Position numbers and translations under genes: made by a program
Notes under the pieces: model-generated
What the model saw: the letters and a program-made list of their open reading frames with translations, nothing else
The model's database searches: none
Told to the model about the DNA's origin: nothing
Origin: Candidatus Thorarchaeota archaeon
GTDB lineage: Archaea > Asgardarchaeota > Thorarchaeia > Thorarchaeales > Thorarchaeaceae
Length of the DNA stretch: 18,668 nucleotides
Reading direction: 5' to 3'
Assembly: GCA_048882485.1 (NCBI GenBank)
Contig: JBHLRP010000059.1
Span: forward strand, 1 to 18,668
Part shown: in pieces, positions 258-18,668 of the stretch
Numbering within the stretch: the first letter of the stretch is position 1
How the letters are laid out: each line of letters begins with the position of its first letter

Positions 258-292
258 GCAGACAGGTCCAATGTTCATCTCGCCATGACCAC
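258..292 (-). repeat. Degenerate anchor-3'-end repeat, copy K
   Basis: gcagacaggtcc..cgccatgaccac; minus strand reads VVMAR[1-nt deletion]GPVC; ends 3 nt from the stop of the 296..853 gene. Confidence 0.6.
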
Positions 293-295
293 CAA

Positions 296-853
296 TCACT
301 GAGTATATCCTAGAGGAGAGGGTGGAGTAGTCAATATCATCTCATTCCCATTCTCCCATTTCGTTAGAACCCTACTATACAGTAGGGTGCCCTCGTCAAT
401 TGTTGGAGAGAAGATACTGTTTCTTACATTGGTGAACTCAAATACAGCGCTCCCGCCTGGTCTGATCATAGGCCACACAAAATACTGGATATTTGAGTCC
501 AAGTCGAGTGTGGCAAGGGGCGAGCAATTGTCGTAGAAATAGATAGTCATTCGAACAGCATAAAAATACTCGACTGTGATGTTGCCAATATTTGTAACGT
601 TAATCCAGATTATTGTATAGAACGGGGGCCCCTCGTCTGGGATATCCGGCATGAAGTCTTGCCAGTATATTGCCTCTGCCCAGCCTTCAAGTTCTCCTTC
701 AATGATGATTTCTGGTTCTTCTCCAGGTGGCCCTGGAGGAGGCGGGATCTGTAGTGGATTGGAATCTGCAATCAATAGCATTCCTCCAACTACACCAAGA
801 CCTAGAACTGCGACTAGGATGATGCCTGCTGTAGTTACTTTCCAAGCTGACAT
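296..853 (-). CDS. Hypothetical N-terminally anchored/secreted protein
   Basis: 185-aa ORF with N-terminal hydrophobic helix, Pro-rich linker (PPPPGPPG) and beta-rich domain. Confidence 0.8.
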   Translation of the reverse strand: MSAWKVTTAGIILVAVLGLGVVGGMLLIADSNPLQIPPPPGPPGEEPEIIIEGELEGWAEAIYWQDFMPDIPDEGPPFYTIIWINVTNIGNITVEYFYAVRMTIYFYDNCSPLATLDLDSNIQYFVWPMIRPGGSAVFEFTNVRNSIFSPTIDEGTLLYSRVLTKWENGNEMILTTPPSPLGYTQ

Positions 854-891
854 GAATATACTAGTACATTATGGCTCATCCAGATATAATA

Positions 892-937
892 CTAGATTTT
901 AGAACACCTAGTCTAGATTTTAGAACACCTCAGTCTA
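892..937. repeat. Tandem duplication, ~21-bp unit
   Basis: ctagattttagaacacctagt followed by ctagattttagaacacctcagt and cta, in the divergent intergenic region. Confidence 0.9.
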
Positions 938-1006
938 TTACGAGACTGCATGTTCTAGGTTGCAGCGAAGCATTATTCACGAAATATTGAGTCCGTAAAC
1001 AGGAGT

Positions 1007-16615: not shown

Positions 16616-16837
16616 TCCTGTGATTTAGAGATAGATTCCTGGTATGCACCCGGACACCAATCTGTAACCAGCTCGCTGTCGAGATTGAAGAACTATTTTA
16701 TATTTTTGATTTCCCGGCAACCGCTCACCAGAATGGACATATGAGAAGGGCCCTCAAGCCCGTAGATGTCGACGACGCTCTTGAACCGGACTCATCGAAC
16801 CAGTGAAGGCTCTCCACTGCTACATACCTACAACCAA

Positions 16838-16947
16838 GATGAAGAATGAGGGAGCATGAAGCTCTCTCTATGAGTTTGAAACTACATCTGTTTCTCTTGT
16901 CTGTACGGCAGACAGTCAGGTCCGAATATATCGCGTGACATGACGAT
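16838..16947 (-). repeat. Anchor-3'-end repeat, copy B (intact frame plus hairpin flank)
   Basis: 16882-16947 reads IVMSRDIFGPDCLPYRQEKQM*; abuts and overlaps the M32 stop by 1 nt; hairpin at 16848-16868. Confidence 0.92.
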
Positions 16948-18479
16948 TAAGAATAGAGAACCGAGTACTTGTGTGTCAGATATTTGATATACGGCTTTGC
17001 AGAGAGGCCCTTTCCAGTGACATGATTCATGAGTTCAGGTAAATCATAGAGTCTGCCCACAAGATAGATTCTCCCTCTCATCCAATCAAGAATCTTTGAG
17101 ATGTCACCTGAAGCCAATTTCAATCTCCATTCTGGAAAGTCCTTCTCCATTGCTTCAATGATTTGGGCGGAAATTACATTCCCAAGCGAGTATGTCGGGA
17201 AATGTCCAAACATGCCTATGGCCCAATGTGGATCTTGTAGTGCACCCTCCCCGTCATTCTTCACCTCAACCCCCAAGTACTTCTGATAGAGTTCATTCCA
17301 TACTGAAGGAATCTCACTAGCATCAATCTCTTCTGCAAAAAGGCTTCTCTCTATCTCGAATCGGATGGCGATATGCATGTTATAGGTGAGTTCGTCTGCA
17401 TACACTCTCAGAGGTTGAAGCTGAACTGGATTCACTGCCTTTGTGAAATCTGCGACACTAATATTCTCAAAGAGGCCATTTGCCATATTGTTCAAAATGG
17501 GGAGGAAGTATTCCCAGAACTCAAGAGACCTGCCAATTATGTTCTCAATGAGCCTTGCCTGTGATTCTGTTACAGCGCTACCTGCATGGTAGCCTACAGG
17601 TTCGTATTTCCATTCTGTATTGAGATGCCTGTTGTAGAGGGCATGTCCACTCTCATGAAGAAATGACATAATGGATGTCTGGAATCTATTTTCTTCATAT
17701 TTCACTAGGATTCTCACATCATCATACAATCCCATTGTGAATGGATGTTCACTTTCACCGAGTATGCCGAAAGCAGACTCAGACTCAAGGTCATAACCCA
17801 CAAAATTGGCAAGGTGTCTGACAATTCTCTTTTGGAGCTCGATATCCACACTTCTATCCATGAAATCTGTTTCAACCTCTTTTGATAGAATTGCGTACTT
17901 CTTTGCCAGTGGAGATACTGAATTGACAAGCTCTTTGAGCAAGGCTGTCAGGTCGTCTGTCCTTATTCCTCTTTGATATCTATCGAGTAGCGCATCATAG
18001 AGAGTATCCAGTCCCATGCTCTCAGCGTGATAAGCTGCAATTTCCTTTTCAATCATGAACATCCCTTTGAACTCGTCCTCAAATGGACTCCATGTACCCT
18101 CCTTCTTTGCCTTCAACCTCGCATTAGATGCCATTGCAGCCTGCTTTTGGCGCTTCCTAGCAAGTTCCTCTGGCACTTTCGCGTCCTTTTCATACTCATG
18201 CCTAATGAGGAACAAGTTGCGTCGTTGTATCTGATCAAGTGTATCCAGATTCTCAGGTCTCTCAGCTTCTCGCAGCATGTGTTCTGTTTCCTCGTTCATC
18301 CAAGTGCGCTGTATTGTCGCCGCTAGACTTGCCATTTCCTCTCCACGTTGGTTGTATCCACCTCTTGGCATGTTTGATTTACTATCCCATTCAAGGATAG
18401 ATTTCAGGTTCCAAAGCATTACGGCTTCCTTCCATCCCTCGACCAGCTTATGGTAGCATGCCTGATTTGGTTGCTCCAT
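16947..18479 (-). CDS. Carboxypeptidase M32 (carboxypeptidase Taq/Pfu family)
   Basis: HPF, DVRI, HESGH (HEXXH), ESQ, LRVYADELTY, GALQDPHW, FPTYSLG; likely start ATG at 18479 (track start 18497). Confidence 0.95.
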   Translation of the reverse strand: MEQPNQACYHKLVEGWKEAVMLWNLKSILEWDSKSNMPRGGYNQRGEEMASLAATIQRTWMNEETEHMLREAERPENLDTLDQIQRRNLFLIRHEYEKDAKVPEELARKRQKQAAMASNARLKAKKEGTWSPFEDEFKGMFMIEKEIAAYHAESMGLDTLYDALLDRYQRGIRTDDLTALLKELVNSVSPLAKKYAILSKEVETDFMDRSVDIELQKRIVRHLANFVGYDLESESAFGILGESEHPFTMGLYDDVRILVKYEENRFQTSIMSFLHESGHALYNRHLNTEWKYEPVGYHAGSAVTESQARLIENIIGRSLEFWEYFLPILNNMANGLFENISVADFTKAVNPVQLQPLRVYADELTYNMHIAIRFEIERSLFAEEIDASEIPSVWNELYQKYLGVEVKNDGEGALQDPHWAIGMFGHFPTYSLGNVISAQIIEAMEKDFPEWRLKLASGDISKILDWMRGRIYLVGRLYDLPELMNHVTGKGLSAKPYIKYLTHKYSVLYS

Positions 18480-18610
18480 TTGACGAAATCCTCCCAAATT
18501 CGATGCTTATCTCCACCAGAGGATTAGGAAACATACATGACTAATCAGTCAATCGGTGGAAAGAAGGAGAAGCTTAGAGAGGGAACACCTTTCTCGATTT
18601 GAGACTAGAA

Positions 18611-18668
18611 TTACATCTGCTTCTCTTGCCTGTACGGCGGACAGTCAGGTCCGAAGATTTCCCGTGCC
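18611..18668 (-). CDS. 3' end of putative anchor gene (repeat copy A; runs off right edge)
   Basis: Reads ..AREIFGPDCPPYRQEKQM*; followed by a weak hairpin (18577-18595) and pyrimidine tract. It could be an intact gene end or another remnant. Confidence 0.6.
   Translation of the reverse strand, partial: AREIFGPDCPPYRQEKQM

Follow-up and report, generated by a model that had tools for sequence, protein, structure and literature searches.

The contig JBHLRP010000059.1 of a Candidatus Thorarchaeota archaeon, hereafter the window (the entire contig C59, 18,668 nt), is best explained as the anchor-distal part of an array of accessory genes located behind a single-copy acyl-CoA dehydrogenase (ACAD) gene. 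Each repeat that separates the modules of the array is a former ACAD 3' end, the junctions between modules vary in position inside the repeat, and a LAGLIDADG nuclease is nearly confined to the slot adjacent to the gene. The array is real, widespread and apparently undescribed. As read from the sequences, its formation is probably due to a selfish DNA-cutting enzyme combined with ordinary DNA repair, and not to an integrase. The window belongs to G000, a 3.96-Mb metagenome-assembled genome (MAG) with a completeness of 90.5%. The other G-numbers refer to genomes of the family (86) and the L-numbers to extracted loci, the collection of array loci amounting to 1.59 Mb. G000 and its closest relative G005 were both excluded from the training of the repeat profile, whose background was 0.02 matches per shuffled window at ≥6 bits. 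The statistics given below count related genomes as independent and the p values are therefore overstated.

The repeat unit and its origin

In relatives of G000, the anchor is an intact ACAD gene of about 413 residues whose end constitutes the first copy of each array. This anchor is single-copy in 47 of the 86 family genomes and the repeat was matched in 58 of them. The preliminary description of the window had proposed that the repeat was the 3' end of a protein-coding gene, and the intact gene heading the arrays identifies it as ACAD. The unit comprises the last 66 nt of the gene (21 codons and the stop codon), a 3' hairpin and a pyrimidine tail, for a total of about 115 nt. The stop codon is followed by about 15 nt, then by the GC-rich hairpin (mean z -2.0) and the tail; the same arrangement is found behind intact ACAD genes and presumably acts as a terminator.

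The array loci contain 408 repeat matches, only three of which oppose the majority orientation of their contig. Around intact ACAD genes, 101 copies were found downstream and none upstream. The 5' edge of the repeat is sharp in 168 of 222 strong copies; ahead of this edge nothing is conserved, and the repeat has no conserved arm beside it. The edge and the exclusively downstream position agree with the serial displacement behind one anchor that had been suggested from the window. Chloroflexi homologs of ACAD had no repeat copies among the matches listed and no LAGLIDADG nuclease beside them.

Copies within a genome diverge mainly at synonymous sites, with a ratio of non-synonymous to synonymous differences (pN/pS) of 0.28 versus 0.15 between ACAD genes. 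The ratio is 0.34 and 0.22 in the two halves of the copies and reaches 1.4-1.5 in shifted reading frames, while pS between gene and copy within one genome is 0.69. This coding-type divergence indicates that each copy is a recently functional gene end and that the copies derive from diverse alleles; the C-terminus of another lineage was even recognised in one of the G020 copies. Additionally, the last 54 nt of ACAD genes follow the similarity of the gene body less closely than upstream windows do (rho 0.34 versus 0.51-0.57), as for a replaced gene end. Some modules are nearly empty, in L082, L150, L158 and L179 (139-155 nt from the gene end to the following copy) as well as in G063:C113 and G081:C146: the gene end and hairpin are followed by about 30-50 nt and a further copy. 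The single-contig genomes G004 and G047 are devoid of the ACAD anchor. The copies of G004 (C1:60245, 101711 and 126528) are scattered in both orientations; in G047, five copies of a common orientation persist together with the remnant of a nuclease (C1:3060137-3065180).

Across the loci, 279 inter-repeat intervals were delimited, with a median of 1.3 kb and a single open reading frame (ORF) in 59% of them. The 451 module ORFs fall into 278 families and are found on both strands with promoter space. The cassette-like look of these mostly single-ORF modules, and the enrichment of integrons in Asgard archaea (PMC9668308), could evoke a true integron or a cluster of attC sites lacking an integron integrase (CALIN) with atypical attC. 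This reading, like that of a dispersed repeat of the miniature inverted-repeat transposable element (MITE) or repetitive extragenic palindrome (REP) type, is highly improbable and largely refuted. None of 183 copies has R''/R' attC boxes, the coding part is unfolded (mean z -0.3), no IntI was found, and cargo genes lie on either strand with room for promoters of their own. The copies derive from a gene and form clusters with a common orientation; in G000 they are confined to contigs C59 and C92. Neither a genome-wide dispersal in both orientations, nor the lack of a long ORF ending in the repeat, nor a gene order conserved across relatives without breakpoints at the repeats was seen.

Crossovers, recombinases and the anchor-linked nuclease

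In pairs of loci with a common upstream module, identity usually stops at columns 4-17 of the repeat. In pairs with a common downstream module, it usually starts at columns 34-52, and a few pairs differ. A model with a fixed crossover at the 5' edge or in the middle of the repeat was rejected, no single breakpoint fitting the data. The spread of breakpoints over the repeat points to repeated homology-driven crossovers and not to one recombinase core, although later homologous recombination could have blurred an original crossover core. The mobilisation in trans by a site-specific recombinase, as first proposed for the window, is not supported: crossovers are spread, no recombinase was found at any array and a LAGLIDADG endonuclease is the only mobility enzyme tied to the locus.

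An integrase could nonetheless be provided transiently by a virus or plasmid, acting in trans at the repeat 5' edge and stacking enzyme-free satellites or decayed elements in the manner of cis-mobilizable elements (CIMEs) or tycheposons. Integrases typically leave a fixed 5' edge and restore the gene end, the tandem accretion of integrase-less CIMEs is known (PMC5704250), tycheposons are far scarcer than the islands they feed (10.1101/2020.12.28.424599), and MAGs frequently lose mobile elements. Several results make this explanation unlikely. The tyrosine recombinase domain PF00589 was found on no array or ACAD contig of the 86 genomes, 57 of which lack it altogether and only 29 of which encode it. 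A profile specific for Thorarchaeota tyrosine recombinases gave no match in G000 or in the array loci, and a pattern scan of IMG/VR for the repeat returned 0 matches. A conserved arm is missing, and breakpoints lie at about column 6 in upstream-sharing pairs versus column 49 at least in downstream-sharing pairs. No cognate integrase-bearing element was found at the ACAD site in the genomes and loci searched, MAG incompleteness being a caveat, and neither a repeat nor a tRNA lies less than 1.5 kb away from the integrase loci of other Thorarchaeota. Tyrosine recombinase, resolvase, large serine recombinase, Cas1, reverse transcriptase and IS110 were all absent from G000, G005, G020 and G047 (single-contig). 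In G024, the fifth genome tested, resolvase, Cas1 and IS110 are present, all away from the array. A casposon- or CRISPR-like acquisition fits poorly, with no Cas1 in four of these five genomes and duplications that, given the gene-to-copy pS, are not identical to the resident target.

Of the 46 slots adjacent to an intact ACAD gene, 13 contain a free-standing two-motif LAGLIDADG ORF, which immediately follows the gene and is encoded on the other strand. Only one of 319 internal slots contains such an ORF, a short remnant. Between the nuclease and the first displaced copy, a HerA-like ATPase is frequently encoded, and in G024, L151 and L155-L157 the nuclease lies between the replacement end and the displaced native end. 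The proteins comprise 560-1040 residues with helix-turn-helix (HTH)-like repeats (for example L075:11340-13031 and L155:11266-13461, both on the minus strand). Both catalytic Asp residues are invariant in the family and the predicted structure (pLDDT 90) best matches the folds of PI-SceI, WhiA, I-SceI and I-DmoI. Family members were found in 34 genomes, where they mostly abut the 3' end or the 5' start of housekeeping genes (named by eye from sequence as ACAD, ETF-alpha-like, carboxyltransferase, Sec61-beta-like and pyruvate-carboxylase-like). They group by neighbouring gene (14 changes versus 22.8 when shuffled) and nine of ten ACAD-linked nucleases form one 99/98 clade. Other members precede Sec61-beta-like, pyruvate-carboxylase-like and GcvT-like genes. 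The sole member in G000 is encoded at C136:1527-3611, directly before a carboxyltransferase start. Another G000 sequence, an insert of about 1 kb with a strong LAGLIDADG match (C138:2190-3181), lies beyond the distal end of the array and is absent from the G005 ortholog; it was discarded as the array nuclease, being probably an intein and outside this nuclease family.

Two signatures tie the nuclease to the edge of the copies. Among 142 independent module ends, 26 run 4-7 nt into gene-matching sequence versus 2.4% expected; the extension is 4-5 nt in 24 cases, 6 nt in none and 7 nt in two. LAGLIDADG enzymes generate 4-base 3' overhangs (PMC3943268), and the 4-5-nt extensions are such as these cuts would leave. 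At the inferred cut, nuclease-bearing ACAD alleles depart from the displaced consensus by 3.4 differences per 12 nt versus 2.2 for other alleles (p 0.02, related samples). The perfect 12-nt site is found in 0 of 13 nuclease-bearing alleles versus nine of 42 others, and the copies displaced behind nuclease-bearing alleles mostly retain the consensus.

Host recombination could also have acted without any dedicated enzyme, one old duplication having fixed the 5' edge, homologous and illegitimate recombination having since multiplied the repeats and swapped the cargo unaided, and the nuclease being a passenger. Variable crossovers, the exchanged module order between G000 and G005 and the existence of several different anchors in a genome without recombinase are in line with this proposal. 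It is nevertheless quite unlikely, since the junctions of 142 unrelated module ends are clustered around one position (to about 5 nt), share no remnant and display the overhang-like signature of 4-5 nt, which argues for repeated cutting at that site.

With moderate confidence, and on sequence grounds, we favor a model in which the array was built by nuclease cutting, donor-end repair bringing in cargo, displacement of the old end and later homologous shuffling. The nuclease would be carried by an element resembling the mobile ORFs (mORFs) of fungal mitochondria, made of a replacement gene end, the hairpin, the nuclease and often the HerA-like ATPase. It would cut ACAD about 66-71 nt ahead of the end of the stop codon; the predicted cut would leave a 4-nt 3' overhang inside the five bases before ATCGTCATG. 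The gene-side end would then be repaired off the donor allele, gaining a new 3' end, a terminator and the DNA behind. The broken-off old end would be rejoined behind the copied DNA, either by annealing with a repeat of the donor or by end-joining, the latter route creating a new module whose 5' edge is fixed and retains 0-5 nt of the overhang. Host homologous recombination between the direct repeats could thereafter delete, reinsert and exchange modules. The nuclease module itself would be lost likewise, so that cycles could repeat and enzyme-free arrays remain.

Several observations weigh against this cut-and-repair model. The age gradient along arrays is weak (rho -0.23; negative in 17 of 25 arrays, p 0.11), and the comparison of slot-1 with internal module starts gave 0 matching pairs for 37 gene ends; insertion is thus not strictly anchor-proximal. 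The window is devoid of nuclease and its anchor is unassembled, and the single family member of G000 precedes the carboxyltransferase gene, not ACAD. A homing element would occupy slot 1 even if another agent had built the array. Finally, the tRNA-fragment arrays of G000 begin in the anticodon stem or the T-loop. These are the usual integrase sub-locations in tRNA genes.

Copies and modules of the window

The window contains twelve co-oriented copies, all on the minus strand and partly decayed, of which ten were recovered by the independent profile (7-99 bits) and two by orthology. About 11 same-orientation copies, possibly 12, had been counted beforehand; all twelve were confirmed, including that at 6926. 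The sites themselves proved real in the earlier list. The one at 8198 is only a hairpin and trailer, and the unit extends beyond what was then described to the 3' hairpin and pyrimidine tail. The proposed minus-strand translation holds for the best copies, and every copy is indeed intergenic or in contact with a stop codon. Sites 258 and 6926 score under the profile threshold, but their flanks elsewhere adjoin a full repeat at 1 nt (G013, G063, G072) or 11 nt (G016). In G000 the repeat occurs only on C59 and in three co-oriented copies on C92, whose modules belong to the same array in G005. Together with the profile matches and the orthology, this indicates that the repeat is neither due to chance nor dispersed. 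The contig stops inside its first copy and the anchor is not in the assembly, G000 giving only paralogs of about 30%; the gene ending at 18611 is consequently not demonstrable in this genome.

From the anchor side, copy A (18557..18668, 91 bits) consists of a coding part cut by the contig end (18611-18668), with the ACAD-tail translation, and the trailer. Module 1 (16947..18497, minus strand) encodes an M32 carboxypeptidase (PF02074, E 1.6e-139), a 70% homolog of which is a repeat-bounded module in L180; it is missing from the G005 array. Its stop codon (16947-16949) has one base, the first of the copy, in common with copy B (16832..16947, 99 bits), which has a complete 66-nt coding end (16882-16947), hairpin and pyrimidine tail. 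Module 2 (15008..16615, minus strand) encodes a 535-residue membrane protein without family match, also present in G005 (92%) and, bounded by repeats, in G076 (83%). Copy C (14768..14805, 13 bits) is limited to the 5' half. Module 3 (11189..14321) associates an AsnC-type regulator (13305-14321, plus strand), a hypothetical protein (12400-12987, minus) and a DUF362 protein (11189-12226, minus). All three genes are repeat-bounded in G002 (89%), and the DUF362 gene forms a module by itself in G018 and G097. Copy D (11140..11178, 7 bits) is a decayed 5' half whose orthologous position in G002 is a full repeat. Module 4 (8562..11113) comprises a C_GCAxxG_C_C protein (10607-11113, plus), an HTH_10 regulator (9936-10586, plus) and an alpha/beta hydrolase (8562-9830, minus). 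It is common to G002, G011 and G083, where it adjoins repeats. Positions 8219-10599 are missing from G005 through an ordinary deletion eroding the distal array; only one of its two breakpoints falls in a repeat, namely in the hairpin.

Copy E (8418..8550, 44 bits) is near-complete with a small deletion, and copy F (8199..8243, 9 bits) is the hairpin and trailer of a decayed copy (hairpin z -5.9), a full repeat lying 15-20 nt ahead of this hairpin in G016, G063, G071, G072 and G086. The divergent pair of module 5 (6956..8197), a membrane protein (7613-8197, plus) and a TetR regulator (6956-7525, minus, PF00440), is found in the arrays of eight other genomes with different neighbours. Copy G (6926..6959) is the heavily decayed one whose flank lies 1 nt from a full repeat in the three genomes cited above. 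Module 6 (5820..6875, plus strand) encodes two hypothetical proteins and is common to G005. Beyond copy H (5544..5578, a 5' half, 17 bits), module 7 (4226..5546) carries a TetR regulator (4887-5546, plus) and an ICMT-family methyltransferase (4226-4846, minus); it is missing from G005 and its 80% match in G016 ends 16 nt short of a repeat. Copy I (4162..4200, 20 bits) precedes module 8 (3028..3840, minus strand), a metallo-beta-lactamase-fold protein (PF13483) also missing from G005. Copy J (2959..3010, 27 bits) retains the 3' half and trailer. Module 9 (1635..2907) encodes an ATC-hydrolase-like protein (2164-2907, minus) and a hypothetical protein (1635-2075, plus), its second gene being a single-gene module in G066. 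Copy K (1534..1571, 19 bits) is again a 5' half. Module 10 (296..1504) contains a TPR protein (1007-1504, plus) and a hypothetical protein (296-853, minus), two genes that form separate modules in reversed order in G016. The distal end is marked by the decayed copy L (258..291), the same flank being followed by a full repeat in G016, G064 and G083.

Overall, modules travel between lineages as repeat-bounded units, and two modules are in exchanged order between G000 and G005. The cargo of the window (peptidases, hydrolases, regulators, a methyltransferase and membrane proteins) includes no mobility gene; the modules are, as anticipated, free of recombinases, and they are common to other genomes and break at the repeats. 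Stop codons within 15 nt of a repeat are hardly a special feature (42% versus 36% in the control) and were rejected as such. Giant single ORFs of 2,701 and 3,047 residues also occur as repeat-bounded modules in G024:C1 (region 24589-32694 of a 516-kb stretch, L038) and G018:C26 (L041). No pseudo-sites were seen at the native loci of cargo genes, the homologs compared being only about 70% identical.

Other gene ends in G000 and known systems

Other gene ends are repeated in G000. About 16 copies of the 16S rRNA 3' trailer span 47 kb (C15:20214-67533, L309-L311), about 20 being co-oriented when C124 and C143 are included; they separate small modules and their anchor was recognised via G005 and G047. 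The uS19 gene 3' end occurs in six copies, five of them co-oriented behind the gene (C85:360-8618 (L314), C90 and C14:7815-7938). Five displaced 3' ends were found for nrdD, encoding the anaerobic ribonucleotide reductase (C28:5661-10298, L315; C10:711-7494, L316). Arrays of tRNA 3' fragments, with the starts mentioned above, are located on C26, C71, C82, C103, C63 and C20 of this genome without integrase. Additional clustered repeat families, one of them structured-RNA-like and one ending in an open frame, and single displaced ends following an AhcY-like gene and a 289-residue gene were found at C46:18638-22563 and C8:77524-77668, on C141/C13/C34, on C96/C119/C14/C146, and at C6:68731-72282, C4:104533 and C24:4223. 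The other G000 repeat families gave no match to Rfam at the gathering threshold.

It is conceivable, though we hold it only tentatively, that Thorarchaeota capture accessory genes mainly via a family of free-standing, target-specific homing endonucleases and double-strand break repair in place of integrases, the ends of several housekeeping genes serving as integron-like cassette platforms. If so, integron-like gene capture would operate with a different chemistry, nuclease cutting and repair, in prokaryotes closely related to eukaryotes, most genomes of which lack a tyrosine recombinase (57 of 86). This would provide Asgard archaea with a concrete means of acquiring genes horizontally, account for the frequent assembly breaks just behind these genes and yield a sharp prediction for in vitro assays, namely the cut position of an unstudied LAGLIDADG family.

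No description of the ACAD array was found in the literature search, subscription papers being outside its coverage. The preliminary description had recognised no known system: this stands for the array itself in the literature found, whereas the single step is known from fungal mitochondrial mORFs, in atp6 of Allomyces macrogynus and in atp6, atp9, cox2 and nad3 of Glomus (PMC3630166). As in mORFs (PMC3630166), a free-standing LAGLIDADG ORF lies behind the gene, between a foreign replacement C-terminus and the native C-terminus displaced downstream, with no integrase; in the relatives of G000 this ORF has intact catalytic motifs and the predicted fold. mORFs are single events whereas the Thorarchaeota array aligns 10-15 displaced ends in a row on an archaeal chromosome and encloses nuclease-free cargo modules moving between species. 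The archaeal nuclease also differs by its opposite strand, its larger format with HTH-like repeats (560-1040 residues) and its frequent HerA-like ATPase.

Additive islands at tRNA genes, in Alteromonas (PMC4898812) and Actinomarinales (PMC7771536), and tycheposon islands (10.1101/2020.12.28.424599) are similarly composed of cassettes divided by direct repeats of the target-gene end, whose sharing is independent of host phylogeny. Contrary to both, the anchor of the array is protein-coding, no integrase is linked, crossovers are variable and nearly every module keeps its repeat. The accretion of CIMEs and, in tandem, of integrative conjugative and mobilizable elements (ICEs and IMEs; PMC5704250) at gene 3' ends also piles enzyme-less units at a restored 3' end with the old end displaced, as observed here, but the array has no att arms and no integrase or transfer-gene remnants, and its median module measures 1.3 kb. 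With integrons and CALINs, archaeal ones included (PMC9668308), it shares a polarised array of small units shuffled between sites behind one fixed site; it differs by the absence of IntI, attI and attC, by a repeat made of a gene end and terminator, and by cargo genes that occur in either orientation and have their own promoter space. By analogy, the array could be seen as the logic of fungal mORFs repeated into an integron-like row.

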